NCBI GenBank assembly: GCA_038878695.1
Contig: JAVZVD010000002.1
Coordinates: 158,734-198,733 of the forward strand
Source: Fervidicoccaceae archaeon
GTDB lineage: Archaea; Thermoproteota; Thermoprotei_A; Sulfolobales; Fervidicoccaceae
Direction: 5' to 3'
DNA length: 40,000 bases
The notes below the pieces were generated by a model, which worked only from the letters and a program-made list of their open reading frames with translations, did not search any database and was not told the DNA's origin. This document shows positions 7,242 to 22,646 of the stretch, piece after piece. The translations under genes and the position numbers were made by a program. Within the stretch, counting starts at the first letter, position 1. Each line of letters opens with the position of its first letter.

Positions 7242-8423
7242 TTAGGCGCGGCGCGAGGACGCTCGGGCGCTTCCCCGCGTCGGCTCGCTCTCTATCATCC
7301 GCAGGTACTCCGCGAGCCTCAGCTTGAACCTATCGTAGGAGAACTTCCTCGAGACCTCGGCCGCTCTGCTCCCGAGGCGCCTCAGCTCCTCCCCGTCGCT
7401 CTCGAGCTCTCCGACGATCCTAGGGATCTCCCTCACGTCGATGTAGCCGAGCCTCTGGTCCACCCCCGAGACCACGTCCGTCCAGAGCCCCCCGCCTCTG
7501 TAGACTATCGGGACGCAGCCCGCCGCCATGGCCTCGACCGCCGCTATCCCGAAGTGCTCCGAGTAGGGCGGATGAACGTAGAACCTAGCCATCCCGAGGA
7601 TCTCTCGGAGCTCTCGCCTGTCGACGTTGATCTTGAGCTCGACGTTTCCGAGGCCCCACTCCTCGATCGCGCTCCTCATCCTCTCGATGACGGGCCTCGA
7701 GTACCTCCCGGCCGAGCCGACGAACACGAAGTCGTAGCCCGAGAGCTCCCTCGCCGCGATCAGGAGGTCCTCGAGCCTCTTCTCGGGCGTGAACCTCGAG
7801 ACCGTGACTATCAGCTTCTCTCTCCCTCCTCTCTGAGCCTCCGCGAAGTACTCCACGTCGACGGGCGGGTGGAGCACCCCGAGCCTCCCCCGCGCTCTCG
7901 GGTAGAGCGCCGCGACCTTCTCGGCCGTCCAGGAGCTATTCGTCAAGATGAGCCTCGGCGAGCCCTCAATTCTCCTGGCTAATCGAACGACGAGCTCGTG
8001 GTAGAGGTCGTACAGGAGACCCGAGCCGTAGCCTGGGGCGACGGTGGGGTAGTGGATGTAAGAGACGTCCACGTCGGTCGGGACGTTGGTCCCGGTGTCG
8101 ATGACGAGGTCGAAGCCGCGACGCTCCTCCTCGAGCTCTCTCAGGAACTTTTCGGCCAAGATCAGGCGCTTCAGCCTCACGAACCTCTCCTCTAGGATCG
8201 AGTCGAGCGCGTTGTAGAGGAGGGGGGTCGGAGAGGCTCTCAGCCTGGGCTCGTAGCCTCGCTCGAGCAGAGACAGCGAGCGCTCGAGAGCCTCTCTGTC
8301 TCTCACAAAGGTCCGGATCTCGACCTCGTGGCCCAGCTCTTCCAGAGCTCTGCAGAGCTCCATTGAGAATTTCTCCACGCCTCCGGCGAGCTCGAATAAC
8401 GCGTGGAAGACCAGGGCTCTCAC
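7242..8423 (-). CDS. GT4-family glycosyltransferase (paralogue A)
   Basis: 393 aa. The C-terminal half has FTPEKR...YVHPPYSEHFGIAAVEAMAAGCVPIV, the E-x7-E type GT4/GT-B signature. Confidence 0.8.
   Translation of the reverse strand: MRALVFHALFELAGGVEKFSMELCRALEELGHEVEIRTFVRDREALERSLSLLERGYEPRLRASPTPLLYNALDSILEERFVRLKRLILAEKFLRELEEERRGFDLVIDTGTNVPTDVDVSYIHYPTVAPGYGSGLLYDLYHELVVRLARRIEGSPRLILTNSSWTAEKVAALYPRARGRLGVLHPPVDVEYFAEAQRGGREKLIVTVSRFTPEKRLEDLLIAARELSGYDFVFVGSAGRYSRPVIERMRSAIEEWGLGNVELKINVDRRELREILGMARFYVHPPYSEHFGIAAVEAMAAGCVPIVYRGGGLWTDVVSGVDQRLGYIDVREIPRIVGELESDGEELRRLGSRAAEVSRKFSYDRFKLRLAEYLRMIESEPTRGSARASSRRA
7418..7581. repeat. 164-nt inverted repeat, copy 1 (inside GT4 paralogue A)
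   Basis: The reverse complement of 7418-7581 equals 9493-9656 at 162 of 164 positions by base-by-base comparison. Mismatches are 7564/9510 and 7455/9619. Confidence 0.95.
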
Positions 8424-8662
8424 GTTCGCGGCACCCGAGGCGGTTCTAGACTGCTCGCTCGGACCTGATAAATAAAAAGGCCTGGAGATCCTCTAGGCCA
8501 GCCAAATGGTGATGCGAGTTTTAACCTAATTGGAAAAACCCGCCATCGAGTCAGAATTTCCCCGATCTTAAATCCCGCGTCGAGCCGCGCCGGCCCGATG
8601 CGGATGGAGGGCGTCTCAATATTAAGGAGCTCCGACCCTCGTCGGAGGTCGGAGAATAGAGC
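8424..8662. promoter_or_regulatory. Divergent promoter region between GT4 paralogues A and B
   Basis: The interval is AT-richer than its flanks. One TATA-like box (ataaataaaaa, 8468-8478) lies about 45-55 nt from the minus-strand start. Another (caatattaagg, 8618-8628) lies about 35-45 nt before GTG 8663. A hairpin with an 8-bp stem (8630-8637 with 8647-8654) includes a GGAGGT Shine-Dalgarno-like sequence (8644-8649). Confidence 0.4.
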
Positions 8663-9808
8663 GTGAGAGTGGCTCTCCTCCTGGATTTGTTCGGAGTATG
8701 TGGCGGTGGACAAAAGGTTAGCCTCGAGATGGCTAGAGCCCTCGAGGAGGGCGGTTGGCGCGTCGTTTTCCTGTCGACCTCCCGCGAGAACCTAAGCGAG
8801 TGCGCTGAGCTCTTGGGCATCGAGGGAGATTTCCCGGTCGTCGAGGTACGCGACTTCGTTGAAAGCGTTCTGGCGAGGACCGGGAGATTTGTGCGCTATC
8901 GAGCGCTGCGCTTAATAGTGGGCGCCCTCGACGCGGCGAAGCGTTTGGCCGAGCGCTTCGACGCGGTCCTCATCGATTCTCAAAGCAGTATGCCGCTCAG
9001 AGGCGCCGATGTATCATATCTTCACGGTGTTTACACCGCGAAGAGCGCGGGACGCGTCGGTCCGTTCTACGAGGCCCTCTTGAGATACGAAGCTAGCCGG
9101 CTCCTCGGGAGGCCGAAGCTCGTTCTCTCCAATAGCAACTGGGTCGCGAGGATCGTCGAGAGAGCATATGACGTCGAGACGCGGGTCCTGCATCCGCCGG
9201 TGGACTTCGGCTATTTCGAGTACGATGGCCGCAAGAAAGAGAAAATCGTGGTCACGACCTCGAGAATCAGCCTCGAGAAGAAGGTCCACCTGCTCCCGCG
9301 AATCGCGGAGCGCCTCCGAGGCTACGAGTGGTACCTCGTCGCTTCGACCCTCTCCTCGCTTTCACCGACCTACGCGGACGCCATCCTCGCCGCGATCGAG
9401 CGCGAAATCCGCTCCCGGAAGACCGAGAACTTCCACGTGCTAACGGACCTCGAGCGAAGAGAGCTCAGAGAGCTGCTCTTGAGAGCTAGCTACTACGTTC
9501 ATCCGCCCTGCTCGGAGCACTTCGGGATAGCGGCGGTCGAGGCCATGGCGGCGGGCTGCGTCCCGATAGTCTACAGAGGCGGGGGGCTCTGGACGGACGT
9601 GGTCTCGGGGGTGGACCATAGGCTCGGCTACATCGACGTGAGGGAGATCCCTAGGACGATCGAGAGGCTAGACTCGATGAGCGCTGGGGATCTAAATTAC
9701 CTCCGTGAACGAGTCATCGAGCGCGCCAAGAAGTTCGACTCCCCGCTCTTCAGGCGGAAGTTCTTGGAAATCGTCGAGGGGGTCTCGAGAAGCGCGGCGC
9801 CACGTTGA
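8663..9808 (+). CDS. GT4-family glycosyltransferase (paralogue B)
   Basis: 381 aa with the same architecture as paralogue A: SLEKK...YVHPPCSEHFGIAAVEAMAAGCVPIV. Confidence 0.8.
   Translation: MRVALLLDLFGVCGGGQKVSLEMARALEEGGWRVVFLSTSRENLSECAELLGIEGDFPVVEVRDFVESVLARTGRFVRYRALRLIVGALDAAKRLAERFDAVLIDSQSSMPLRGADVSYLHGVYTAKSAGRVGPFYEALLRYEASRLLGRPKLVLSNSNWVARIVERAYDVETRVLHPPVDFGYFEYDGRKKEKIVVTTSRISLEKKVHLLPRIAERLRGYEWYLVASTLSSLSPTYADAILAAIEREIRSRKTENFHVLTDLERRELRELLLRASYYVHPPCSEHFGIAAVEAMAAGCVPIVYRGGGLWTDVVSGVDHRLGYIDVREIPRTIERLDSMSAGDLNYLRERVIERAKKFDSPLFRRKFLEIVEGVSRSAAPR
9493..9656. repeat. 164-nt inverted repeat, copy 2 (inside GT4 paralogue B)
   Basis: See copy 1; 162/164 identity in inverted orientation. 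Confidence 0.95.
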
Positions 9809-9830
9809 AGGCCGCGTCTTTTTCAGGATC
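9809..9830 (+). terminator. Putative archaeal T-tract terminator after GT4 paralogue B
   Basis: A TTTTT run at 9819-9823 lies 11 nt after the TGA stop (9806-9808). Confidence 0.35.
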
Positions 9831-10431
9831 GGGGTCGAGACTTGATTCGAAACTAAACATCGACTAGTTCGACCTCGATCGAGCCTGGGTCGACCCAAGT
9901 GAGGGGGTTTCAGCTGGGCCTAGCCTTCTCCGGCTCATGGCGGGATCCTCGCAGCGATGGCTAATTTTTAGTTCTTTGTTACGTTATTTTGCGCTAGGTC
10001 GTTCTTCTTCAGGGAATCACCGTACGCCGGACTCTGGGTACGCCCCCTGGCTTCGAGCTCGAACGTCTCGAGATCAAGCTTGCACGTGCTTGGACTTCGC
10101 TGCCTGGCCTCGGCCTTTTCTCCACGTCCTTTCCTAGGACCGCGGAGCATACGCCCGTCAATATCATCAATTCACGAATACGCTCACGGATATCGATGCG
10201 CGCTTCGCCGGACAAACCGCAGCCGCGCCTATTAAAACTATCGCTCCGTAAATTGTTAGAATTAAGCTCATCCGAGGGTCTTCATATTCCCACCTTTTCT
10301 TTTAAATAATGCATCACGAAGTTTACGAAGTTTACCGAGCTGGCGGAGCTATTCCACCGATTGTGGCGATGACGCCTGAGGCTATAAGGGCTACGAACAA
10401 CTATAGGCGCCTTAGGGGGTCGTGATCGATC

Positions 10432-11706
10432 GTGACCCTGGAGAAAAGCGATGTTATCGTAGTAGCTGACGTAGTGCCGCCAAACGTCGTACCAACCGGC
10501 GGGGGCCTAAGGTCTACACGTTCTATCAAGGAGTACTCCAAGCACTTCTACGTCAACCTAGTGACACCGGCTACGCGTAAGTTTACGCGCTACGAGCTAC
10601 AGCTATTAAGGGACGATCTCATGGTGCAAGACGTTTACCCGGTTGAGGCGAGGTTAAAGATCCTGGGCGATGGTAGGTTCGCTTTCACGTACCTAGCCAT
10701 CCCACCTAAAGCGCTGAGAATGTTGCTGAGAATTGATAAGTTAAGGGCAAGGCCCAAAGCGATCGTTGTCTTAAACGAGCCGTGTGATTGCCTATGTATT
10801 GGTAGGCTGCTAAAGGAGGAGCTCAACGCCCCTTCTCTCGCGATGCTTCAACTCCCACTCTTCTACCGCGACGAGAGTAGGAGGGAGGCCATCACGAATG
10901 CCCTCAGGCTCTGGTACGATGAGCTATATGGAGACAGCTACGTAGCTAAGCTCGTTAGGAAACTAAAGGCAAGACTAGAGTTGCTGCTGACGCACTCTAG
11001 AATCGCTGAAGAGCTTCTCGAAAGCTATGACGTGTTAATAGCGGTGAGTAAGGCCGTTTTCGTCGAGATGGGCGGGGAGCCGTTCGGCAAGTTCTACGTC
11101 ATGGACCCGGGGGTCTCGCTCAACGAGGAGGACGAAAAGTTGATATCGAAAATAAAGGAGAGCGCTAGAGAAAAAGGTAACTACGTAGTATTTGGCGGGC
11201 GCGTGGACGCCCTAAAGGGATTTGTGGAAGCGTTGTACGCGTTCAGAGAAATTTGCAAAGGGAACTCATCGCTGAGGCTCGTTATAACAGGGCACGTTAG
11301 CGATAGGCTGAGAGTGCGAGTGGAGGAGTTCGCGAGGAGGCTCGGGCTCGAAGATAGAATTGTCCTAACCGGGGCCGTTCCTAGGGCCGAGAGATTTAGA
11401 ATCGTGGCTAAGGCTAATCTGATGCTCTACCCAAGTCACGCGGACGCATTCTCCTACGCCGTATTGGAGTCGCTACATCTAGGCACGCCGGTGGTAGCAT
11501 ACGATATACCTGCGCTGAGACTGTATTACGGCGGGCGTCCTGGAGTAAGGCTCGTAAGGGAGGGCGACGTGGAGGCGTTAGTCGCCGAGGCTCTGAACAC
11601 CCTCGACTCGAAAAGCGTAGAGGTCGAGCCACCTCAACTAAGGAGCTGGGATGAAATTATGCAAGAGGAAACGAACCTAATAAAGAGGGTCATGCTCGAG
11701 AAATGA
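10432..11706 (+). CDS. GT4-family glycosyltransferase (paralogue C, compositionally atypical)
   Basis: 424 aa. GRVDALKGF...LVITGHV...MLYPSHADAFSYAVLESLHLGTPVVAYD is a GT-B/GT4 C-terminal signature. GC is visibly lower (one counted line 30/60) and the gene uses more A/T-ending codons than its neighbours. Confidence 0.75.
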   Translation: MTLEKSDVIVVADVVPPNVVPTGGGLRSTRSIKEYSKHFYVNLVTPATRKFTRYELQLLRDDLMVQDVYPVEARLKILGDGRFAFTYLAIPPKALRMLLRIDKLRARPKAIVVLNEPCDCLCIGRLLKEELNAPSLAMLQLPLFYRDESRREAITNALRLWYDELYGDSYVAKLVRKLKARLELLLTHSRIAEELLESYDVLIAVSKAVFVEMGGEPFGKFYVMDPGVSLNEEDEKLISKIKESAREKGNYVVFGGRVDALKGFVEALYAFREICKGNSSLRLVITGHVSDRLRVRVEEFARRLGLEDRIVLTGAVPRAERFRIVAKANLMLYPSHADAFSYAVLESLHLGTPVVAYDIPALRLYYGGRPGVRLVREGDVEALVAEALNTLDSKSVEVEPPQLRSWDEIMQEETNLIKRVMLEK

Positions 11707-12600
11707 TTAGTCGTTCTCCACACTCGTACTATTCACGCAAAGAGCTCACCAAGTAATTTGGAGAAGTTGGGACGGCTGAGACGGTAAAGCTCATTGAAGG
11801 AGCTCACTCGTCTACCCGAATTTGTGCATGGGACTCGTAAACCTCGATGAGGGGGCGTCGCGGTGGAGCGCGTGAGCCATCGCAGCGCACCGCACGAGGC
11901 CTGGTACTACGGTTAAGTCGCGGTCGCGCTTGAACATCGCAGTACCTGGTGATGAAACCCGCACTACCAGCCTATACCACGTTCTTAGAGTGGAGTCGGT
12001 GGAAGGAGGTGCTTGCACATTGAGGCATACTCGAGTTGAAGTCGACTCCCAGAGCCGAGCGGGGTCGATTAAGGTGGGCTCGATGAGAGCGCAGCCCTGG
12101 GTGCGCTCAGAGTCCGGTTGGGATGCAGCGGCTCACCTATGCACATCTAATGAAGAAGTATGGTCTAGATAGACACGTGGCGTCAGCACACCTCGCAGCG
12201 CTCAAGTGCATTCCGGTCAACTCGCAGGAGCCGCGCGACGACGAGGCCGCCCGATTTGTCTAAGCGAATGAGCCCCCTCTCTCTCCATCGAGAGGAGGAT
12301 CCGGCGGATCCTCTGATAGAGGGCCGACCTGCTCCCGGGGAATCTGGCGGAGGCCAGTCTGGCCAAGTGGGCCAGGTAGACGCCGGGCTCTCGGAGAAGC
12401 TGCCCGGCGACGAAGGCCCGCAGAGAGTTCCGCCGATCGAGCAGGCAATAGCATTTAACCGAGAGACTGAGATTTCGTGCTCGGGCCGTCTCGGGTCACC
12501 TCCGGGGGCGGTGGTGGCGGAGGCGGAGAGCTTGGGCAGTCACCTTCGGAGGATCCGGGGCGGCCCCCGGTTAAAGCGAATCGACGTGTTCGAGAAGCGC

Positions 12601-12835
12601 TAGCCGGCCCGAGCTAGCTCCCAGCTTGCTCGCGGCTAGCCCGAGCTAGCTGCTAGCTGGCTGCTAGCAGCCTGCTGGCAGCTGCCAGCAAGCTGCCGGC
12701 AGCTTGCTAGCGAGCAAGCTAGCAGCTTGCTTAAGCTAGCTAGCGAGCTAGCTACCGGGATCCCCTCGAGGGGATCCCCCGAGAGGGGGGAGAAGGGATC
12801 CCCTCGCGAAAATTCGGCAGCAGGCTGCTAGCTGC
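12601..12835. repeat. Dense array of nested perfect palindromes and inverted repeats built from GCTAGC / CAGCTG / GGATCC / CTCGAG words
   Basis: Eleven GCTAGC sites start at 12613, 12635, 12645, 12652, 12663, 12706, 12718, 12735, 12739, 12747 and 12827. Perfect palindromes lie at 12659-12672 (14 nt), 12673-12690 (18 nt), 12687-12708 (22 nt), 12735-12744 (10 nt) and 12757-12778 (22 nt). Long-range inverted pairs are 12663-12677 with 12818-12832 (15 nt) and 12623-12633 with 12710-12720 (11 nt). Direct repeats are 12607-12619 = 12639-12651 and 12757-12768 = 12795-12806. Stop codons occur in all frames. Confidence 0.9.
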
Positions 12836-12840
12836 TATAA

Positions 12841-12912
12841 ACGACGCGCGCATCGGTATAGGTACGCGCATAGCAGAGCGCATAGAGCGCTATAGCGTAT
12901 AGAGCGCGTCGT
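12841..12912. repeat. Stem-enclosed short-repeat block (GCGCATAG / ATAGAGCGC words)
   Basis: A 9-bp perfect stem (acgacgcgc 12841-12849 with gcgcgtcgt 12904-12912) encloses 54 nt. Inside are GCGCATAG twice (12866, 12878), ATAGAGCGC twice (12882, 12899) and the palindrome cgctatagcg (12888-12897). Confidence 0.8.
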
Positions 12913-12924
12913 CCCTGGGGATGG

Positions 12925-12988
12925 AGGAGAGAATCAATCAGAAAAGACTGAAAAGCTCTAAGGCCTCGCGCTCCTCCCGAGAGGCCTT
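12925..12988 (-). terminator. Possible terminator of the FkbM methyltransferase gene
   Basis: An 8-bp hairpin (aaggcctc 12960-12967 with gaggcctt 12981-12988) is followed on the minus strand by two TTTT tracts (plus-strand A runs at 12942-12945 and 12951-12954). It lies about 95 nt past the stop. Confidence 0.3.
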
Positions 12989-13080
12989 CTTGAGATTCCC
13001 ATAGGGTTCTCGATAGAAAGGGGCCTCGGGCGCAGGAGCTGCGTAGGAGCTAGGTCTATACGGAAGATCTAAGCGCGAGC

Positions 13081-13929
13081 TTATCTCATTGGCTCGAGAA
13101 CATAATATATCGGAGGCGTCTCCGGAGATATCCTTCTCATCGCGTATCCTCTCTCTTCAGCGAATTCCCTTATCCTCTCCGGCTCCCAAGCTTCGACTAT
13201 CACCGTCGGGCGAAATCTCTCTAAGGTTTTGACCAGCCCCTTGAGCACCTCCAGCTCGGCACCTTCCACGTCTATCTTCACGCAATCGACTCTCTCGACT
13301 CCGAGCTCGTCTAATACGTCGTCTAAGGCCCTAGCTCTGACTTCAACGGAGCCCAGCCCGCGATTCACCTTCAGGCTGTGGTGACCTCCCGAGTCCCCGA
13401 TGAACAGCTTCAGTGCGCCCTCCCCGCTCCAAGCGGCTATGTTCAGAGCGACGACGTTGCTCAGGCCGTTCAGCTCGATGTTCTCGACGAGGGTCTCATA
13501 GTTCTCGGGGTGGGGTTCCACGGCCACGACCAGGCCCTCATCCCCGACGATCTTCGCCACTGGGACGGTGTATTTCCCCACGTGGGCTCCGACGTCCACG
13601 AATACGCAGCCCCTGCACACTCTGAGATGATCCCACATCCATCTCTCGAATTCATGGTGAATTATAGCGATGCACTCGGAATCTACGCAACGTAGTTTGT
13701 ACTTGCCAAAGTTGAGCGTAGCGCGCTTTGCTAGTTGATTCTTGACGCGCAAAGCGAGATGCTCTAGAAATGCCGATCTACGTATGATGATGTTCGGGAT
13801 GGAATCTACGAGGGCCCAGAGGAGTAGCCGCGTCTTATCGGCGACGGTGAGCCCTCGGGAGACCGCCTCGGCTCTAAGTTTTAACATTAAAAGATAGCCG
13901 CGCGCGCTGGGCACGCGTCTCTCGACCAT
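13081..13929 (-). CDS. FkbM-family SAM-dependent methyltransferase
   Basis: 282 aa. VFVDVGAHVGKYTVPVAK...VVAVEPHPENYETLVENIELNGL...VKIDVEGAELEVLKG is the classic FkbM pattern. Confidence 0.8.
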   Translation of the reverse strand: MVERRVPSARGYLLMLKLRAEAVSRGLTVADKTRLLLWALVDSIPNIIIRRSAFLEHLALRVKNQLAKRATLNFGKYKLRCVDSECIAIIHHEFERWMWDHLRVCRGCVFVDVGAHVGKYTVPVAKIVGDEGLVVAVEPHPENYETLVENIELNGLSNVVALNIAAWSGEGALKLFIGDSGGHHSLKVNRGLGSVEVRARALDDVLDELGVERVDCVKIDVEGAELEVLKGLVKTLERFRPTVIVEAWEPERIREFAEERGYAMRRISPETPPIYYVLEPMR

Positions 13930-14216
13930 CGCGCCTCGCTCCCCTCTCAGCCTCTGGAAGTTTTCCGGCGCCTGCTCAGCTCGATCGATGGAGCGGAGCG
14001 GGATTACATCCTCGCGATTAAAAGCTTAATCTCCGGATTCGGGGATCGCTTTTCGCTCACCGACTTGATAATTGATCGAGCCCGTGAAATTCGACGGTGG
14101 TGACCCAGCGATAGAGCGCGAGCGCTCACCGGGGGGCTCGCCCGCCGGAATCGAGCCCGCGGAGCGACGGTTCGAGAGGCTTCGGCGAAGACTCGCCGAG
14201 CGCAATGAGAGGGGGC

Positions 14217-14390
14217 TCAGACCTCCTCGCGCGAGGCTCCGCCCGCGAGTGCGGCATCGAGTATCAACGCAGCCCCCAATAGGCTCAGAATCCACGGCCA
14301 GATCGCGTTCATCGAGAGCAGCACCGATACGCCTATCAGGAGCGCTCCGCCCCAGATGGCCTGCCTGATCCTCCTGCTTCTCCCGCTCAA
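14217..14390 (-). CDS. Possible 57-aa membrane protein
   Basis: My own translation (below the track length cut-off), TTG start: MSGRSRRIRQAIWGGALLIGVSVLLSMNAIWPWILSLLGAALILDAALAGGASREEV. It has a basic N-terminus followed by two hydrophobic helices. Confidence 0.3.
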   Translation of the reverse strand: MSGRSRRIRQAIWGGALLIGVSVLLSMNAIWPWILSLLGAALILDAALAGGASREEV

Positions 14391-14464
14391 GGAGCTCCCC
14401 CCGTTCTCCTCGCGCTCCGCGCCGTTTTAAGGGGTGGAGCGGCCTCGGGCAGCCTGCTCCGCGC

Positions 14465-14728
14465 TCACATGTAGGCCTCGGAGCTCCTCGGCCTGGCGGC
14501 GATCTCGGCCAGCGCCTCCGAGAGCCTGAGAGCTCTCTCGAAGCTCTTGACGATGACCCCCTCGTAGAGCTCCAGGAGCTCCGCCAGCCTCTCCTCGGCC
14601 CTCTCGCTCAGGGGCTCGAGCTGGAGCTCTAGACATATCCTGACGTAGCCTTCGACCTCGGCGCAGACCCTCGTGGACCTGTCGCTCTTCCTCTCTATCG
14701 AGACGGAGCCCAAGCCCGGCCCCGGCAT
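14465..14728 (-). CDS. Hypothetical 87-aa helical, acidic protein translationally coupled to glnA
   Basis: The ATG (14726-14728) shares one base with the glnA TAA stop (14728-14730), giving TAATG. Composition is coding-like (LELQLEPLSERAEERLAELLELYEGVIVKSFERALRLSEALAEIA). No family recognised. Confidence 0.5.
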   Translation of the reverse strand: MPGPGLGSVSIERKSDRSTRVCAEVEGYVRICLELQLEPLSERAEERLAELLELYEGVIVKSFERALRLSEALAEIAARPRSSEAYM

Positions 14729-16080
14729 TATAGGCCCGCGTAGAGATAAATCTCGTACGGGTGGGGCCTCGACTCCACCTCCCTCGCCTCCCTCCTCTTC
14801 AGCTCGACGTAAGCCTCGACGAGCTCCCTCGAGAACACGGGCCTCAGGTAGTCGTTGTCGCTCTCCAGCTCGTCGAGGGCCTCGCCGAGGCTCGACGGAA
14901 GAGTCCCGACGCCGAGCCTCCTCCTCTCCTCCTCGCTGAGCTCGTAGGCGTTGACCTCGAGGGGGTCCCCGGGGTCGAGCCTCCTCTTAACGCCGTCGAG
15001 CCCGGCCATTATCGTGGCGGCTAGAGCCAGATAAGGATTCGCCGTGGGATCGGGGGCTCTGAACTCGATCCTCGTCCTCGACGGGCCGTTCGATGCGGGG
15101 ACCCTGACGACCGCCGTCCTGTTGTAGTAGCCCCAGACCGCGTAGACCGGGGCCTCGTAGCCCGGCACGAGCCTCCTGTAGCTGTTCGTCGTCGGGGCCA
15201 CGAGAGCCGAGAGGCTCCTCGCGTGCTCGAGCACTCCGGCCACGAAGCTCCGAGCGAGCTCGCTCAGCCCCCCCTCCTCGTCGGCGAAGAGGTTCCTGGA
15301 GCCGTCGAGGGCCCAGAGGCTGAAGTGCAGGTGCATCCCGCTTCCGTTGTCTCCGTAGACGGGCTTCGCGAGGAACGACGCGGTCAGCCCCCTCTTCCCG
15401 GCCAAGTTTCTGGCGGCCCACTTCGTCGTCAGGACCTCGTCTCCGACGAACACGGGGTCTCCGGCTCGCAGCGAAAGCTCGATCTGAGAGGCCGCGACCT
15501 CGTGGTGAGACACCACGGCTCCGTAGCCGAGGAGCTCGAGCGCCGACGATAGATCCAGCCTGAAGTCCATGAGGGGGTCGGTCGGCTCGACGCTGTGGTA
15601 GGACCTCTTGAGCTGAATCGGGTAGGAGCCCTGGGAGTCGAGGAGGTGCTCTATCGAGTAGCCGGAGCCTCTGTGGAGCTGCTCGACCTGCACTCTGAGA
15701 GACTTGAAGAGGAAGAACTCCACCTCGGCCCCGACCACCGCTCTCATCCCGAGCTCGGCCAAGTGCTCGATCACCCTCTCGGCGACGAGCCTGGGATCTC
15801 TCTCGAGCCTGATTCCCCCGGGCTCGTATATCCTGCAGAGAGCCCTCGCCGCCCTCTCTTGCCACGGTATGGGCCTCAGGGTCTCGGGGACGACCTCGAG
15901 GAGCAGGTCGCTCCTCTCGACTCTGGCGAGGCCGCAGACGCTGCTCCCATCGAAGGAGGCGGGGAACCTAGACGACTCGAGGGCCTCGGCCGGGACCTCG
16001 ACCCCTCTGAGGTAGCCGGCGAGGTCGCAGTACTGCAGCTGGACCCTCTCGTATCTTTTGTTCTGGGATCCCCCGCTCAA
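14728..16080 (-). CDS. glnA: Glutamine synthetase, type I
   Basis: 450 aa. GS hallmarks are present: FDGSS, GSGMHLHFSLW, NSYRRLVPGYEAP, RIEFRAPDPTANPYL. Confidence 0.9.
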   Translation of the reverse strand: MSGGSQNKRYERVQLQYCDLAGYLRGVEVPAEALESSRFPASFDGSSVCGLARVERSDLLLEVVPETLRPIPWQERAARALCRIYEPGGIRLERDPRLVAERVIEHLAELGMRAVVGAEVEFFLFKSLRVQVEQLHRGSGYSIEHLLDSQGSYPIQLKRSYHSVEPTDPLMDFRLDLSSALELLGYGAVVSHHEVAASQIELSLRAGDPVFVGDEVLTTKWAARNLAGKRGLTASFLAKPVYGDNGSGMHLHFSLWALDGSRNLFADEEGGLSELARSFVAGVLEHARSLSALVAPTTNSYRRLVPGYEAPVYAVWGYYNRTAVVRVPASNGPSRTRIEFRAPDPTANPYLALAATIMAGLDGVKRRLDPGDPLEVNAYELSEEERRRLGVGTLPSSLGEALDELESDNDYLRPVFSRELVEAYVELKRREAREVESRPHPYEIYLYAGL

Positions 16081-16195
16081 GTCGAGGCACCGTTCCGCTC
16101 TCTAACGGCTCGCTCAGAACGCGTAAAAAACGATGACGGTCGGGCATCGAAACATTTATTCTAAGATGGCCACCCACCGAGCGAGGAGGGGCCGA
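16081..16195. promoter_or_regulatory. Divergent glnA / Lrp-family regulator promoter region
   Basis: gtaaaaaacg (about 16121-16130; TTTTTTAC on the minus strand) lies about 40-50 nt upstream of the glnA start. aaacatttattctaag (16150-16165) lies 30-45 nt upstream of ATG 16196. Confidence 0.4.
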
Positions 16196-16696
16196 ATGCC
16201 CGATCGGGGAGCTGTCGAGGTCGACGAGCTGGACCTCGCCTTAATCGAGGCCCTCAGGAGGAACGCCAGAGCGAGCCTGCGCGAGATAGCCAGGCAGATC
16301 GGCCGATCTCCCTCCGTCGTCTTGAGCAGGCTGAGGAGGCTCGAGTCCGAGGGCGTGATCAGAGGCTACACCGCTCTGATCGACTACAAGAAGATAGGCT
16401 ACGACGTCTGCGCCCTCACGCTGCTCCAGGTCGACGGAGCTCACATAGCCGAGGTCGAGAGAGCCCTCGCCTCCGAGCCCAACGTTAGGATCGTGTTCGA
16501 CGTGACCGGAGAATACGACGTGGCAGCGATAAGCGTCTTCAAATCGGTCTCGGAGCTGGACTCGTTCATCAAGAGGACCCTCGGCAACCCCCACGTGAGG
16601 AGGTCCGTCACGAATCTCGTGCTCAGAGTGGTCAAGGACGAGCCGCACGTGAGCCGCCCCCTCGTCGAGCGCGAGAGGAGCGGGCGCGGCGCTTGA
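16196..16696 (+). CDS. Lrp/AsnC-family transcriptional regulator
   Basis: LDLALIEALRRNARASLREIARQIGRSPSVVLSRLRRLESEGVIRGY is the HTH, followed by a RAM/ACT-like domain (LLQVDGAHIAEVERALASEPNVRIVFDVTGEYD). Start chosen at ATG 16196 because the track starts (16133/16166) overlap the TATA-like box; this choice is uncertain. Confidence 0.8.
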   Translation: MPDRGAVEVDELDLALIEALRRNARASLREIARQIGRSPSVVLSRLRRLESEGVIRGYTALIDYKKIGYDVCALTLLQVDGAHIAEVERALASEPNVRIVFDVTGEYDVAAISVFKSVSELDSFIKRTLGNPHVRRSVTNLVLRVVKDEPHVSRPLVERERSGRGA

Positions 16697-16828
16697 GGTC
16701 GAGTCGAACTTCGGGCCTCGCCGCCTCGAAGATCGTCGGCGGAGAGAGCGAGGTCTGGAGAGTCGCGTGAGAGAATCGCGAGACCTTTTAATAGCGATCT
16801 AGACGAGAGAGCGAGGAGGGCGGTTGGA

Positions 16829-17392
16829 TTGCCGAGATACGCGGTCTTGGTCATAGACATGCTCGAGGACTTCGTGCGCGGCTCTCTCAAGTGCGAGCGA
16901 GCTCTCTCCATAATTCCCAACCTCAAGAGGCTCCTCGATAGGGCCAGGAGGCTGGGCGTCCCCGTCGTGTACGCCAACGACGCGCACGTGCCCGGCGTAG
17001 ATCACGAGTTCAAGCTCTGGGGCCCCCACGCCGTGAGAGGGACGGAGGGGGCTCGCGTGGTCAGAGAGCTCGAGCCTACGAGCGCGGACTACGTGGTCGA
17101 GAAGAGGAGATATAGCGCGTTCTTCGAGACGGGCCTGGATCTCCTCCTGAGAGAGCTCGGCGTAGCCTCCGTGGCTCTCGCGGGCCTTCACACGAACATA
17201 TGCGTGAAGCACACCGCCGCCGACGCGTTCTACAGAGGATACGAGGTAATCGTGCTCAGAGACGCCGTCCAGGCCTTCACCGACGAGGACCACGAGTGGG
17301 GCCTCAAGTACATGGAGAAGGTCTACGGGGCGAAGATCGTGACCGTCGACGAGTTCCTCGCGATGGTCGAGGGAGAGAGGGCGAGGGCCTGA
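16829..17392 (+). CDS. Isochorismatase-family cysteine hydrolase (nicotinamidase-like)
   Basis: 187 aa. AVLVIDMLEDF, VVYANDAH, KRRYSAFFETGLDLLLRELGV and LAGLHTNICVKHTAADA (catalytic Cys context) are present. Confidence 0.75.
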   Translation: MPRYAVLVIDMLEDFVRGSLKCERALSIIPNLKRLLDRARRLGVPVVYANDAHVPGVDHEFKLWGPHAVRGTEGARVVRELEPTSADYVVEKRRYSAFFETGLDLLLRELGVASVALAGLHTNICVKHTAADAFYRGYEVIVLRDAVQAFTDEDHEWGLKYMEKVYGAKIVTVDEFLAMVEGERARA

Positions 17393-17501
17393 GCTCGAAG
17401 GGGGGCGAGACGCCGATCGCCGAAGCCCCAGTCAGTCGAGCTAGCTCGACCGGTTTAAATTCGAGCGCAGCGTCGAGGATCTCCCCCGAGACGGGCCGCC
17501 G

Positions 17502-18713
17502 GTGCGCGCCGTGCCGTTGATAGCTCACATAGCCGATACGCACTTGGGCTACGCTCAGCTCTCCCTAGAGGAGCGCGAGGAGGACGTCTACTCGCTCTTC
17601 GAGGAGGCGGTGAGAAGGGCGGTCCTCGAGGAGAGAGCGGACCTAGTCGTTTTGTCGGGCGACGTCTTCGATAAGCCGAGGCCCCCCAACAAGGCCCTGG
17701 TGCGCTTCAGGAGAGCCCTCGAGGTGGCCGAGGAGAGAGGAGTCAAGGTCGTGGCGGTGGCCGGGGAGCACGACCTCGTCAAGACGAGGAGAGACGTGAG
17801 CGTGCTCGAGGTGGCCCCCCTGCTCGTCGAGGGGCTCGTCGTCCTCTGGCCCCCCGGCTCGAGCGGTAGACCTCACAAGCTCGAGGTGAGGACCTCGAGC
17901 TCGACTCTGGTGCTCTACGGGGCTCCGGCCTACCCGAGGACTCCTCAGAGGCTCGAGCACTACAGAGGCCTCTTCGCACGCTACGAGCGCGAGGCGAGGG
18001 CCGAGGAGGGAGTCAAGGTCCTCGCGGCTCATCTACCGGTGGAGGGCTTCATGAGCTCGGAGTTCGAGCCCAGCCTGCCTCGAGCTCATCTGCCCCGCGG
18101 CTTCTCGTACTACGCTCTAGGCCATCTCCACGCCAGAGCCTGGGCGAGGACCGAGGAGGGGGCCCTCTTGGCCTACCCGGGCAGCATCGACGTGCTGAAC
18201 AGAGGAGAAATAGAGAGCTGGAGGAGAGAGGGCAAGGGCTTCTACCTCGTGGATCTCTCGGGCGACGAGGCGAGGATCGAGAGGGTGGACCTAGACGTGA
18301 GGCCTCAAATAGCGATAGAGGGGGAGCTCGGCGAGGTCTTGACGTTGCTAGGGAGAGAGCTCGGGGCTCTCGAGCGTAGGAGGCCTCTCGTCTTCCTCGA
18401 GGTGGAGGTGGAGAGCGGGCAGAGAGACAGAGCGAGGGCCGAGATCGAGAAGATGCTGCGCGGCAGAGTGCTCGACTACAGGCTCGTGCTGAGAGAGAAG
18501 ATGATCGAGCTCGGCCCGGTCTCGTTCTCGGCCTCGAAGTCGCGCAGCGAGGTCGAGGTCGTGTCGAGCATCTTGGGCTTGAGCGAGGAGTTGGCGAGAG
18601 CTCTCGTGGAGCTGAAAGCCTGCCTCGCCTCGCGCAGGAGCGCCGACGAGTGCAGGGTCGAGGTCGAGCGCTACCTCGAGCTGATCGAGAGCGGGGGGAG
18701 GAGGGGGGCGTGA
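17502..18713 (+). CDS. mre11: Mre11 DNA double-strand-break repair nuclease
   Basis: 403 aa. Phosphoesterase motifs are present: HIADTHLG, LSGDVFD, VAGEHD, GHLH. Confidence 0.85.
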   Translation: MRAVPLIAHIADTHLGYAQLSLEEREEDVYSLFEEAVRRAVLEERADLVVLSGDVFDKPRPPNKALVRFRRALEVAEERGVKVVAVAGEHDLVKTRRDVSVLEVAPLLVEGLVVLWPPGSSGRPHKLEVRTSSSTLVLYGAPAYPRTPQRLEHYRGLFARYEREARAEEGVKVLAAHLPVEGFMSSEFEPSLPRAHLPRGFSYYALGHLHARAWARTEEGALLAYPGSIDVLNRGEIESWRREGKGFYLVDLSGDEARIERVDLDVRPQIAIEGELGEVLTLLGRELGALERRRPLVFLEVEVESGQRDRARAEIEKMLRGRVLDYRLVLREKMIELGPVSFSASKSRSEVEVVSSILGLSEELARALVELKACLASRRSADECRVEVERYLELIESGGRRGA

Positions 18714-21481
18714 TAGTCGAGAGGATCAGGCTCGAGGGCTTCAGGAGCTACTACGAGGCCTCGGAGATCGAGCTGGGAGAGGGGCTCACGGTGATCATCG
18801 GCGAGAACGGAGCCGGTAAGTCCAGCATAGTCGAGGCGCTCTACTTCGCTCTGCTGGGCGAGCTCCTCCGGGGGAAGATCGAGGAGGTGCTCAATAATCG
18901 AGGCAGACCGCTCGAGGTCAGAGTTCGGCTGCGCGGAGACAGGGGGATCGTCGAGATCGCGAGAGGGAGGGGGAGGAGGCCTCAGCACTCCTTCGATGAG
19001 CTCAAAGTGGACGGAAAGCTCGTCGCGCGCGGCGCGAGGGAGACCACGAGCTTTCTGGCCGAGAGGGTGCTCGCTCTAGGACCCGAAGGGGCCTCGGCCC
19101 TCGAGAGAGTCCTGAGGACTTGCGTCGTCTCTCAGGGAGGCCTCGCGGAGATCATATCGATGCTGAGCAGGCCCGGAGCCAGGCTCCAGGACTGGGTCAA
19201 CGAGCAGCTGGGCCTGAAGGACTACGAGCTAGCTTACGAGAGGCTCGGGGAGCTATCGCTGGAGGCCCCCAAGCTCAAGAGCTCAGCGCTCTCCGTGGCC
19301 CTCGGCTCCCCCTCCTATAGAGTCACCGAGGAGGGGCTGAGGTCCCTGAGAACGGACCTCGAGAGAGGCGAGAGGATTCTGCGAGAGAGGGAGAAGAGGA
19401 GGGGGGAGTTGGAGAAGAGGAGGGGGGAGATCGAGGAGGGCGCGAGGCGGCTGAGGAGAGAGCTGGAGGAGGTCGAAAGGAGGCGCGAGGAGCTGAGGAG
19501 AGAGCTGGAGGAGGTCGAGGAGAGAGGCAGGAGAGCGAGGGAGCTTGAGGCCTCAATAGCCACCCTCGAGCGGGAGGTCTCCGCGGAGAGGGAGGCTCTA
19601 GCGAGAGCCGAGGAGAGGCTGAGGGCCCTCGGAGCCCCCCTCGTGGGGGAGGCCGAGCTCGAGAGGATCGAGGCTCTCGCCAAGGTCTCGGCCGAGCTCG
19701 AGAGGCTCGGAGCTCTCTCGCGGGCCCTCTCGCCCGCGTTCGAGGAGGCGATCGAGCTGAGGTCTCTCGTCGAGATCCTAGAGTCCGAGGGCCTGGCGGT
19801 CAGCGAGGATTTCTCCGCTCTATCGAAATCCGTCGAGAGAGCTCTGAGAGAGCTCGAGTTCTCGCGGAGCGAGGCCGAGAGGCTCTCGAGAGAGCTCGAC
19901 AGAGTGAGGAGAGAGCTCGAGGAGCTCGCGCGGAGAGCGGCCGAGGCTGCTAAGAAGATGGGCGCGACCGCCGACGCCGGGCCCCCGCCGACGGATCTCG
20001 AGGCCTACGGCGAGCTCGCCGACTTCCTCGAGAGGAGAGCGGAGGAGATCGTCGAGAGGCTCGTGAGCGAGGTCAGCTCGCTGGAGAGCAAGAGGGTCAG
20101 CGCCGCGAGGGGGGTCTGCGTGGTGTGCGGGGGTCTCCTAACCGAGGAGAGGAGGCGTAGGATGCTCGAGGAGGCGTCGAGCAGGCTTGCGCCGAGGGAG
20201 AGGGAGCTGGCGGAGGCGAGGAGCTCGCTAGGAGAGCTGAGGGAGATTCTCAGAGAGCTCAGGTCGAGGCTTGCCGAGGCCTCGGACCTCTCGAGGAGAC
20301 TCGAAGAAGCGGCCAGGAGGGCGTCCGAGGCGTCTAAGATGGGGGGAGAGGAGGTCCTCAGGAGGAGGCTCGAGGTCCTCGAGAGGGTCGGGGAGCTCGC
20401 GAGGTCTCTATTGACGGACCTCAGAAGATGCGAGGCCCTGGGGCTCGCTCGAGCCCCCGAGGTCGGAGAAGTCGGGGAGCTCGTCGCGAGAGCTCGCGAG
20501 GTCGCGGCCTGGGCCGAGGGGCTCTCGGGGGAGCTCGCCGAGCTCTCGGGGGAGCTCGCCGGAGAGCGCTCGAGGCTTCTCGAGCTCATGCCGCCGGAGC
20601 TGAGGCCCGAGGTCGAGAAGAAATCGGCGAGGGAGCTCGAGGAGCTGGCCAGAGCGCTCAGGGAGAGGCTGAGGCGCCACTCCGAGATCGCGAGCGAGAT
20701 GGAGAGCAGGAGGAGGAGGCTGGAGAGGCTCGAGTCCGAGTTGTCCTCTCTCCGTTCTCAGCTCGAGTCCCTCAAATACGACGAGGTCAGGCACCGAGAA
20801 CTCAGGAGGGAGCTAGACGCCCTCTCGTCGAGAGCGGGGGAGCTCGCGGGCTCGATCGCCTCGCTCGAGAGCGAGCTGAGGCGGTGCGAGGATGAGCTGA
20901 GGTCGCTCGAGGCCGATCTGTCAGCCTCGAGGGAGGACCTGGAGAGCTTGGCGAGGCTCGGCGGGAGACTCGAGGCTCTGCTGAGGCTCAGGGGCCTCTT
21001 TCACAGAGAGGGCCTGCCGGCGAAGATAAGGAGATACGCGTTGAAGAGGGTCGAGGTCGAGATGAATAGGCTCCTTCAATTATTCGACCTAGAGTACAGA
21101 GAGGTGGAGATCGGAGAGGACCTGAGCCTGAGGTTCCTGGGGCCGAGGGGGTCCGCCTCTTTCTCTCAGCTGAGCGGGGGGGAGAGCGTGGCCGCCGCGA
21201 TATCGTTCCTGCTGGCTCTCAGAAGGACCGTCGAGGAGCTTCTCATCGGCAAGAGCGTCCTCGGCTTCATGGTCTTGGACGAGCCGACGATCCATCTCGA
21301 CGACGAGAGGAGAACGGCCCTCGCTAGAATATTCTCGGAGTTCCAGGGAGGCAGGGTGATACCTCAGCTCATCGTCGTGACCCACGAGGACGACATGAAG
21401 GAGGTGGGGGACTCGGTGGTGCTGGTCGAGAGAGTCGGGGGAGCGTCGAGGGCGAGGAGGCTGGAGGCCGAGGTCTCTTGA
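18710..21481 (+). CDS. rad50: Rad50 ATPase
   Basis: Start re-set to GTG 18710, overlapping the mre11 TGA (GTGA). Walker A is GENGAGKSS. The zinc hook CVVC lies at codons 470-473 of 923 within a long E/R/L coiled coil. The signature is LSGGES and Walker B is FMVLDEPTIHLD. Confidence 0.9.
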   Translation: MIVERIRLEGFRSYYEASEIELGEGLTVIIGENGAGKSSIVEALYFALLGELLRGKIEEVLNNRGRPLEVRVRLRGDRGIVEIARGRGRRPQHSFDELKVDGKLVARGARETTSFLAERVLALGPEGASALERVLRTCVVSQGGLAEIISMLSRPGARLQDWVNEQLGLKDYELAYERLGELSLEAPKLKSSALSVALGSPSYRVTEEGLRSLRTDLERGERILREREKRRGELEKRRGEIEEGARRLRRELEEVERRREELRRELEEVEERGRRARELEASIATLEREVSAEREALARAEERLRALGAPLVGEAELERIEALAKVSAELERLGALSRALSPAFEEAIELRSLVEILESEGLAVSEDFSALSKSVERALRELEFSRSEAERLSRELDRVRRELEELARRAAEAAKKMGATADAGPPPTDLEAYGELADFLERRAEEIVERLVSEVSSLESKRVSAARGVCVVCGGLLTEERRRRMLEEASSRLAPRERELAEARSSLGELREILRELRSRLAEASDLSRRLEEAARRASEASKMGGEEVLRRRLEVLERVGELARSLLTDLRRCEALGLARAPEVGEVGELVARAREVAAWAEGLSGELAELSGELAGERSRLLELMPPELRPEVEKKSARELEELARALRERLRRHSEIASEMESRRRRLERLESELSSLRSQLESLKYDEVRHRELRRELDALSSRAGELAGSIASLESELRRCEDELRSLEADLSASREDLESLARLGGRLEALLRLRGLFHREGLPAKIRRYALKRVEVEMNRLLQLFDLEYREVEIGEDLSLRFLGPRGSASFSQLSGGESVAAAISFLLALRRTVEELLIGKSVLGFMVLDEPTIHLDDERRTALARIFSEFQGGRVIPQLIVVTHEDDMKEVGDSVVLVERVGGASRARRLEAEVS

Positions 21482-22617
21482 TGAGCGAGCTCCTCGAGGT
21501 CTTGGCGGCCAGGAGGGGCGAGCTCGAGAAGAAGATAGCCAGGCTCCTCGAGGAGGGGGGCCGAGGAGTCGGCGTAAAGTGGAGGCCTCTCCCCGAGCTG
21601 GAGCGCTTCCCCAGACCCGAAGGCCTGGTGGTCTCGGCAGTCGACGGGGGGAGCAACAGGAGGTCCCTGCTCTCGCTAGAGGTCTACGTCGTGAAGGCCT
21701 ACTCCGAGTCTGCGAGATTGCTCCCGAGCCTCGCGCTCGAGCCCCTCAGGAGGCGCAGGATCATAGACGTGGACGTCATGCTCCCTCCCCGCAACGTCGG
21801 CGAGAGGCTAACGCTCTACAGGCAAGTGGCCGAGGTCAAGCTGATGCTCGCCTCGGCGAGCTCATCGGATTTGATCCTCGCGGACGGGAGCGTGGAGTCT
21901 CTCGCGGCTAGGCCCATTCACGTCAAGCTGGTGGAGCTCGACCGAGGCGGGGGCCTCGTGCCGGACTGCGAGGAGCTCGCCTCGGAGATAGAGCGCGACC
22001 TGGCCTCGGGCAGCCCGAGAGCCATGGTCTCGAAGCCTCTGATCGAGGAGCTGGCTTCGACCGAGCGAGCGAGAGAGGAGCTCGCGGAGGAGATAAGACT
22101 CGTCGAGGCCGCGGAGAAGGCCGCGTCGCTCAAGCTCCTGCTCGACGCCGTGGCGGAGCGAGGAGCGAGCCTAGTCTTCGTCACGAAGACCGGGCGCTCG
22201 AACAGGCTCTTTGGGGCCTCGGTCCCCGACCAGTACGTGCTGCACGTCTCGACGAAGTCGTCGGGCTACTGCCGAGTCGGGGAGCCGAGCAGTCTCGCTG
22301 AGCTGCTGGGAGCGGGTCTCCTCCCGAGGTACTGCGGCCTTAGGAGCGCGGCCGAGAGGGTGATCGCCGAGAGAGGCTACGTGAGGCTCGCGCCGGGAGG
22401 CCCCGTGCTCGGGATCGACCTGATCGGCCCGAGCTCTTCGAGGAGACCTCTCGAAGAGGTCCTGCCTCTGCTCTCCGCCCTGTCGCCGAGCGGCTACCCG
22501 ACGCTTCTCCAGCTCGTGGACCGCGAATCTCACATATACAACGAAGAGGTAGATAGGGTGGTGACTGCGCTGGGCCTCTCGACGGAGTTTACGGGCAGGG
22601 AGGTGTTGGAGCCCTGA
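21478..22617 (+). CDS. nurA: NurA 5'-3' nuclease
   Basis: 379 aa. The ATGA overlaps the rad50 stop. VSAVDGGSN and LILADGS are typical NurA acidic motifs, and the gene sits in the mre11/rad50/herA cluster. Confidence 0.7.
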   Translation: MMSELLEVLAARRGELEKKIARLLEEGGRGVGVKWRPLPELERFPRPEGLVVSAVDGGSNRRSLLSLEVYVVKAYSESARLLPSLALEPLRRRRIIDVDVMLPPRNVGERLTLYRQVAEVKLMLASASSSDLILADGSVESLAARPIHVKLVELDRGGGLVPDCEELASEIERDLASGSPRAMVSKPLIEELASTERAREELAEEIRLVEAAEKAASLKLLLDAVAERGASLVFVTKTGRSNRLFGASVPDQYVLHVSTKSSGYCRVGEPSSLAELLGAGLLPRYCGLRSAAERVIAERGYVRLAPGGPVLGIDLIGPSSSRRPLEEVLPLLSALSPSGYPTLLQLVDRESHIYNEEVDRVVTALGLSTEFTGREVLEP

Positions 22618-22646
22618 GGTCGGCCGAGGAGGTCGCGGAGATAGGC

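Follow-up and report, generated by a model that had tools for sequence, protein, structure and literature searches.

A 235-nt block at positions 12601-12835 of the window (the whole 40-kb stretch of DNA analyzed here, from an uncultured hot-spring Thermoproteota archaeon) carries a cluster of perfect palindromes that we confirm to be real and statistically exceptional. The block is low-complexity quasi-palindromic DNA, a known kind of sequence, of a size and density that are unusual for an archaeal genome. Our leading reading, to which we give about an even chance of being correct, is that it represents single-copy, non-coding, cryptically simple and self-complementary DNA, formed by slippage and hairpin-templated template switching within dispensable DNA and containing no dedicated element.

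Genomic setting

The block is situated in the sugar-gene island of its host, in a gap between two convergent genes:

10432-11706, plus strand: GT4 glycosyltransferase gene, left of the gap
11707-13080: gene-free gap of 1,375 nt between the convergent genes, lacking gene calls, codon periodicity, and Pfam matches
12942-12988, minus strand: terminator-like hairpin with arms 12960-12970 and 12978-12988, located by repeat search and sequence reading
13081-13929, minus strand: FkbM methyltransferase gene, right of the gap

An earlier note on this DNA had described the block as non-coding, and its frames are indeed all closed. NCBI lists no protein in the gap, the accessions of the flanking proteins being consecutive, and no gene is called between 11707 and 13080 on a Logan contig that covers the locus (SRR27170998_1374). 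Codon-position GC periodicity is absent throughout the gap, none of its ORFs matches a Pfam family, and a comparison of its largest ORF with 5.8 billion proteins returned no homologue; neither the Pfam scan of the ORFs nor the homologue search of the largest one revealed gene remnants. Two T4 tracts (12954-12951 and 12945-12942) come after the terminator-like hairpin on the minus strand, beyond the FkbM stop codon, an arrangement that probably places the block outside the FkbM transcription unit. Scanning found no intrinsic-terminator-like site within the block itself, and a terminator reading of the block was rejected. The ~900 nt on its left (11707-12600, 51-67% GC) also lack a gene call, codon periodicity, a Pfam match, and a homologue of the largest ORF; this segment could be decayed DNA or an uncharacterized RNA.

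Three GT4-type glycosyltransferase genes (7242-11706) precede the gap, which is followed by the FkbM gene, then by those for glutamine synthetase, an Lrp/AsnC regulator, and an isochorismatase-family protein (the last as called on the Logan contig), and then by the genes for Mre11, Rad50, NurA, and HerA, with hydrogenase/complex-I-like and phosphate-transport genes further to the right. The complete mre11-rad50-nurA-herA cluster occupies 17502-24293, ~5 kb from the block, and the Rad50 coiled-coil region (19326-19600) is the sole other low-complexity stretch in the window. Two small genes on the minus strand (14427-14728; 82 and 57 amino acids as called both in Logan and by NCBI) lie between glutamine synthetase and FkbM, are kept in sister strains, and have no Pfam match.

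The glycosylation-gene island is strain-variable and foreign in GC content: the glycosyltransferase and FkbM segments have 49-57% GC, compared with ~63-65% in their surroundings and ~63% in the window as a whole. Sister strain GCA_038815895.1 (contig JAWBAU010000022.1) lacks window positions 8633-10816, a 2.2-kb segment with one glycosyltransferase gene plus the 5' part of the gene after it. The junction in that strain (locus L233, 9824-9831) carries a GGAGCTC microhomology, with an identity of 96.9% beyond it versus 99.1% before it. Such a microhomology-flanked 2.2-kb deletion in another strain indicates that illegitimate rearrangement operates in the island. The same strain has two added genes between the isochorismatase and Lrp homologues (locus L109, 1773-3799; window ~16700-16740), an amine-oxidase-like gene of 433 amino acids and one of 240 amino acids without assignment, both absent from the window. 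A comparison with orthologous loci was limited by the nearest glutamine synthetases, which are 52% identical in GTDB and 66-68% identical in a large protein collection and whose loci are not syntenic.

Anatomy of the block

Using a script, we located perfect palindromes at 12659-12672 (14 nt), 12673-12690 (18 nt), 12687-12708 (22 nt), 12735-12744 (10 nt), and 12757-12778 (22 nt), which are the five that the earlier note had listed. The long-range inverted pairs it had described (12663-12677 with 12818-12832, and 12623-12633 with 12710-12720) are both present, as are its two direct repeats (12607-12619 = 12639-12651 and 12757-12768 = 12795-12806). Its count of 11 GCTAGC sites within 12601-12835 was reproduced, together with one CAGCTG, one CTTAAG, one CTCGAG, and two GCCGGC sites. 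A 12th GCTAGC, at 12599, spans the left border of this interval, and 12 sites in ~235 nt correspond to a density ~190-fold above that of the rest of the window. The block and its immediate surroundings comprise the following features:

12295-12313: outlying hairpin GAGGATCCG-G-CGGATCCTC (= GAGGATCCGGCGGATCCTC), containing two GGATCC sites
12599-12756: AGC/GCT zone, a self-complementary simple sequence of AGCT type that includes 11 of the 12 GCTAGC sites, defined by triplet cover, TRF, autocorrelation, and folding
12599-12640: hairpin A, inside the AGC/GCT zone
12644-12731: hairpin B, 88 nt, inside the AGC/GCT zone
12734-12753: hairpin C, inside the AGC/GCT zone
12757-12806: GGGATCCCCTCGAG-type (GGATCC) zone, defined by repeat search and TRF (period 14-15)
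12818-12835: inverted copy of 12660-12677, 18 nt, 94% complementary with an exact 15-nt core
12842-12913: hairpin G, a second low-complexity quasi-palindrome built from GCGC/ATAG words (TRF period 9), beyond the interval of the earlier note

Overall, the AGC/GCT zone (12599-12756) folds as a quasi-palindrome of ~130 nt. The hairpins at 12701-12720 and 12734-12753 form a pair, and the difference between them is a complementary change in both arms. According to repeat search and TRF, two interleaved palindromes make up a 14-nt unit that is present ~3.5 times in the adjoining GGATCC zone; the parts of this zone are the 22-nt perfect palindrome at 12757-12778, a degenerate middle copy, and a third copy, GGGATCCCCTCG, at 12795-12806. 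The inverted 18-mer at 12818-12835 is displaced by 140 nt over this zone. In hairpin G, outer arms at 12841-12849 and 12904-12912 enclose ~4 degenerate copies of AGAGCGCAT. Six of the 18 GGATCC sites of the window fall within a 500-nt span (12297-12796).

A self-complementary simple sequence

The three neighboring tracts (AGC/GCT, GGATCC, and GCGC/ATAG) each use a different small set of words. AGC and GCT triplets cover 71% of 12601-12756, compared with 15 ± 6% elsewhere in the window, and the two are equally frequent, with 24 occurrences each in 12599-12756. The identity autocorrelation of the core peaks at lags 4 (0.55), 7, 11, 18, 21, 25, and 32, and TRF reports periods of 4, 7, 11, 18, 21, and 32. 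For 12644-12754, TRF gives a period of 4 with consensus AGCT and ~29 copies, at 66% matches and 17% indels, figures that make "(AGCT)n" a loose label for the core. The block thus combines a few over-represented words with short-period repetition, the hallmarks of simple or cryptically simple DNA, a concept reportedly introduced by Tautz, Trick and Dover in 1986.

The simplest description of the core, overlooked in the earlier note, is that of a degenerate self-complementary (AGCT)n-type simple sequence, from which most of the seemingly extraordinary sites and palindromes follow. The reverse complement of AGCT is AGCT again, and (AGCT)n is the same as (CTAG)n, with GCTAGC every 4 nt. Because the core is self-complementary, GCTAGC, AGCT, and GCWGC sites and many short palindromes arise automatically, and self-pairing becomes possible in many registers. 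Ungapped reflection scores accordingly reveal many near-equivalent symmetry centers in the core instead of a single one, as expected of a slippery self-complementary repeat.

The argument that CTAG is rare in prokaryotes carries little weight here, since CTAG is only mildly depleted (observed/expected 0.74), and the rest of the sequence shows no avoidance of GCTAGC (10 observed versus 12.2 expected outside the block). Restriction avoidance and restriction-modification were rejected as explanations because GCTAGC is not depleted; the Pfam-scanned ORFs of the window include no restriction-modification gene, and nothing indicates a cognate restriction system. Across the 40 kb, CTCGAG and GAGCTC occur 150 and 140 times, respectively, against Markov expectations of 151 and 137 from shorter words, so that these counts reflect codon and trinucleotide usage (CTC-GAG, GAG-CTC) and no special signal. 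An LZ-style parse allowing inverted copies (minimum length 6) discriminated the block poorly from background.

Palindromes and folding relative to composition

When 150-nt segments are compared, the block is the top folding outlier of the 40-kb window, lying 5.4 sd below the GC-corrected mean. For 331 nt, the predicted structure has an energy of -190 kcal/mol (z between about -7 and -8), and folding persists in predictions at 85 C. Against dinucleotide shuffles, RNA folding of the two strands yields z = -6.9 and -8.3 and DNA folding z = -8.0; the multi-hairpin structure suggested from the sequence alone is supported. Four palindromes of at least 14 nt were never reached in 2,000 dinucleotide shuffles of the 235 nt, and a reference set of 1.44 Mb from unrelated prokaryotic and viral loci contains 22 palindromes of at least 18 nt and no comparable cluster.

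If the AGC/GCT zone is shuffled with its own dinucleotides, a palindrome of at least 18 nt appears in 9% of trials, and 2.7% of shuffles match the total palindrome length of the zone. Much of the palindromy thus stems from the self-complementary vocabulary. Measured against shuffles of the same kind, folding reaches z = -6.3 for the 158-nt zone (12599-12756) and z = -4.6 for hairpin B, and exceeds composition only marginally in the GGATCC zone (z = -1.9) and hairpin G (z = -2.0). The long-range pairing of the core (z = -6.3) and its perfect 18- and 22-nt palindromes could equally result from selection for structure. When G-U pairs are disallowed, both strands still fold equally well (-175.5 versus -174.8 kcal/mol), which indicates Watson-Crick symmetry at the DNA level. 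Such strand symmetry is expected of a process or function acting on DNA, not of selection at the RNA level.

Assembly support

Logan contig SRR27170998_1374, the product of a different assembler, is 100% identical to the window over 9627-19929 (10.3 kb), block included, and probably derives from the same read set. Every canonical 25-mer and 31-mer from 12551-12950 occurs just once in the window, which makes the de Bruijn path through the block unambiguous, and the block is internal to a contig reported as 259,945 bp. The glutamine synthetase and FkbM proteins encoded in the window match, with full identity, proteins on that contig of an NCBI MAG labelled "Fervidicoccaceae archaeon". Contigs from four other assemblies of the species (~97-99.7% identical) end at 11570, 12992, 13511, and 13664, on both sides of the block, and none of the four crosses it. 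In a sister MAG, the contigs with the left and right flanks end face to face, consistent with the same gene order. A 1,093-nt Logan contig likewise stops at 14084, the site of an indel in two other strains, which suggests that contig breaks at this locus come from strain mixtures. Agreement between the assemblies, which probably share reads, makes a library artefact unlikely.

Searches for copies and known families

No repeat of at least 14 nt is common to the block and the rest of the 40-kb window, and no similar tract occurs in ~6 kb of added sequence from the same species. A search for further copies, of the sort that the earlier note had recommended, returned none in ~46 kb of this genome. 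Exact scans with the GGATCC-zone 22-mer gave no match in IMG/VR or JGI metagenomes, and those with the AGC/GCT-zone 22-mer and the 20-mer hairpin C gave none in IMG/VR; the 15-nt arm gave 26 single matches, which we judged to be due to chance. In JGI metagenomes, homologues of FkbM (43% identity or less) have no palindrome clusters in their vicinity. Searches with blastn against plasmids and phages returned chance matches only, and a vector or synthetic origin, raised before as a concern, finds no counterpart in any vector or plasmid match.

At gathering score, Rfam 15 yields nothing, and once the threshold is relaxed the sole matches are to generic hairpin models of miRNAs and IRESs (20-44 bits against cutoffs of 31-268); tRNA genes are absent. 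The previous impression that the block fits no CRISPR, REP, origin, or IS-end class is borne out. A CRISPR array was rejected because repeat search and TRF detect only irregular, overlapping repeat families. A replication origin was rejected because the longest AT run in 11707-13080 is 6 nt, the Pfam-scanned ORFs include no orc1/cdc6, and the cumulative GC skew has no turning point here.

Discussion

Several explanations other than a simple-sequence origin have to be weighed against these data. An artefact of library or assembly, such as polymerase-made self-priming DNA or a mis-join, would fit the restriction of the block to the window and the Logan contig (probably the same reads), the contigs of four other assemblies that stop before crossing it, and the ability of polymerases to make hairpin-forming, reverse-complementary short-motif DNA in vitro (PMC13061963). 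We nevertheless regard this as very unlikely, given the 100% agreement of two assemblers over 10.3 kb, the uniqueness of 25- and 31-mers, the internal position of the block in a contig reported as 259,945 bp, the sister-MAG flank contigs that end face to face, and the lack of any vector or plasmid match; the assembly or cloning artefact entertained in the earlier note is unlikely on the same grounds, with the reservation that the two assemblers worked from one read set. A remnant of a mobile element, plasmid, or virus (a MITE or PATE, a hairpin terminus, or a single-strand origin at an integration junction) appears improbable to us. Its attraction lies in the strain-variable island of foreign GC content, in the 15-18-nt inverted arms, and in the rows of hairpins, which are also known from IS200/IS605 ends and rolling-circle single-strand origins. 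Like MITEs and PATEs (IS200/IS605-derived), the block is small and non-coding, with inverted arms and hairpins. Terminal-inverted-repeat-like arms do exist (12660-12677/12818-12835; 15-nt exact, 18-nt 94%), but they are internal to the low-complexity zone, the left one lying inside the main quasi-palindrome, and the flanks, ending in GCTGGCT on one side and beginning with TGCTATAAA on the other, have no target-site duplication in common. The block further differs from such elements in having no second copy in the ~46 kb searched, no repeat of at least 14 nt shared with the rest of the window, and no nearby transposase; no integrase or Rep was found among the Pfam-scanned ORFs either, no tRNA gene is present, and the IMG/VR, phage, and plasmid collections contain no match. 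No k-mer of at least 25 nt occurs twice, and both assemblies continue across the block. These observations also speak against a MITE bounded by the 15-nt arms, as had been suggested.

At the RNA level, the very stable predicted fold (-190 kcal/mol over 331 nt) and weak TATA-like boxes at 12453-12458 and 12836-12841 would be compatible with a gene for a highly structured non-coding RNA or with an element acting at the RNA level, yet the equivalence of the strands, to neither of which G-U pairs add anything, the low complexity with many competing registers, and the absence of an Rfam family at gathering score render this highly improbable. Equal folding of both strands even without G-U pairs weakens the structured RNA option of the earlier note in the same way. 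A functional cis-acting element, either an array for a dimeric GCTAGC/CTAG-binding protein or a cruciform platform (a centromere-like site, domain boundary, recombination site, or insulator), would be matched by strand symmetry, which is as expected at the DNA level, by pairing beyond composition (z = -6.3) with folds that persist at 85 C, and by the ~190-fold enrichment of GCTAGC (12 in ~235 nt). We still consider it unlikely. Successive GCTAGC sites are spaced by 14, 22, 10, 7, 11, 43, 12, 17, 4, 8, and 80 nt, and comparison of the 12 sites reveals no consensus past the hexamer itself, an irregularity (4-80 nt) that tells equally against the operator array previously envisaged. Moreover, the Pfam-scanned ORFs of the window include no partition, recombinase, or restriction-modification gene, GCTAGC elsewhere is neither avoided nor distinctive, nothing comparable occurs near FkbM homologues, and the adjoining tracts use other vocabularies.

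We therefore return to cryptically simple, self-complementary DNA without a dedicated element as the favored reading, in which both the mutational mechanism and the absence of function are inferred; the anatomy, the statistics, the non-coding status, the strand symmetry, and the lack of other copies in the sequence searched are direct observations. Hairpin-prone repeats would expand and shuffle through replication slippage, and intrastrand or nascent-strand template switching (snap-back copying) would make or re-perfect reverse-complement arms, one event each. This kind of template switching could account for the adjacent perfect palindromes of 14, 18, and 22 nt, for a period of 32 nt, and for the inverted 18-mer displaced to 12818-12835, and the 14-nt GGGATCCCCTCGAG and 9-nt AGAGCGCAT repeats may be other products of the same local process. 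This growth and reshaping would have taken place in dispensable intergenic DNA, within an island prone to rearrangement. A dedicated function is improbable for the tract; it could have side effects, through hairpin or cruciform extrusion or as a fragile or recombinogenic spot. Counting against the simple-sequence reading, compact archaeal genomes do not usually contain long tracts of cryptically simple sequence.

A single template-switch event can create or repair a perfect stem (PMC8794818), quasipalindromes act as hotspots of template switching (PMC7202029), and hairpin-forming, reverse-complementary short motifs are the sequences that polymerases self-extend best in vitro (PMC13061963). The literature backs the mechanism in general, not at this particular locus. 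As in known quasipalindrome and template-switch hotspots (PMC7202029; PMC8794818), imperfect inverted repeats of the block adjoin perfect ones, and a reverse-complement copy is displaced locally (12660-12677/12818-12835). Template-switch studies, however, follow single mutation events with known ancestors, whereas the block is known from one sequence state.

Under a related proposal, self-templated DNA elongation from a hairpin primer in a hyperthermophile left the tract behind in vivo as a fossil. It would be the chromosomal counterpart of the palindromic DNA made by thermophilic polymerases in vitro, and would have arisen essentially de novo at a repair junction of the glycosylation island instead of by rearrangement of pre-existing DNA. 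We assign this a low probability. The palindromic, restriction-site-rich DNA of thermophilic polymerases arises in vitro at the hairpin-coil transition. Products of this "doodling" or hairpin elongation are the subject of Ogata and Miura 2000 and Liang et al. 2004, as cited in PMC13061963. The block resembles them in being palindromic and repetitive, in its reverse-complementary short motifs, and in its richness in one restriction-type hexamer, and its presumed (hyper)thermophilic host matches their thermophilic setting. The in vitro products are kilobase-long and highly regular, in contrast to the block, which is 158-315 nt in length, degenerate, and chromosomal.

Compared with cryptically simple DNA and self-complementary microsatellites in general, the block likewise has a very small word set, overlapping periods, multiple registers, and a non-coding site. 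Unlike an (AGCT)n microsatellite, it is not a clean tandem array (66% matches), it forms a ~130-nt quasi-palindrome with pairing beyond composition, and it is flanked by two simple tracts of other words in a compact archaeal genome. Its position between convergent genes as a set of extragenic palindromes recalls REP/BIME elements (PMC3733652; PMC2817692). REPs, however, are 20-40 bp in length, occur in tens to hundreds of copies, and have GTAG/CGTC heads and RAYT transposases (PMC3733652; PMC2817692), none of which was found for the block: the 40-kb window plus ~6 kb contain no second copy, assemblies run through the block, and the Pfam scan of large ORFs, in this window only, revealed no RAYT (Y1 transposase) gene.

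If the simple-sequence reading is true, the block matters little for gene function. It would then illustrate that "extraordinary" clusters of palindromes and restriction sites can come from a self-complementary simple repeat, and that palindrome scans should be tested against local composition. The block is also a candidate fragile or recombinogenic site in a hypervariable surface-glycosylation island, a few kilobases from the Mre11-Rad50-NurA-HerA genes. Should long palindromic simple tracts recur in hyperthermophiles, they would offer a natural system for hairpin-driven sequence birth and for palindrome tolerance at high temperature.

A 2.4-kb contig of a bacterial MAG (L047) has clusters of 14-20-nt perfect palindromes at both ends (39-120 and 2081-2200), which may be a contig-end assembly artefact. 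Among the matches listed for a triple-GCTAGC pattern in IMG/VR are many contigs with plain (CTAG)n- or (GCTAGC)-type tandem repeats. In one viral contig, IMGVR_UViG_3300027885_000007 (locus L170, 3611-3740), degenerate (CTAG)n is followed by a GCGC-rich, palindromic, low-complexity stretch, a loose likeness to the succession of vocabularies in the block.
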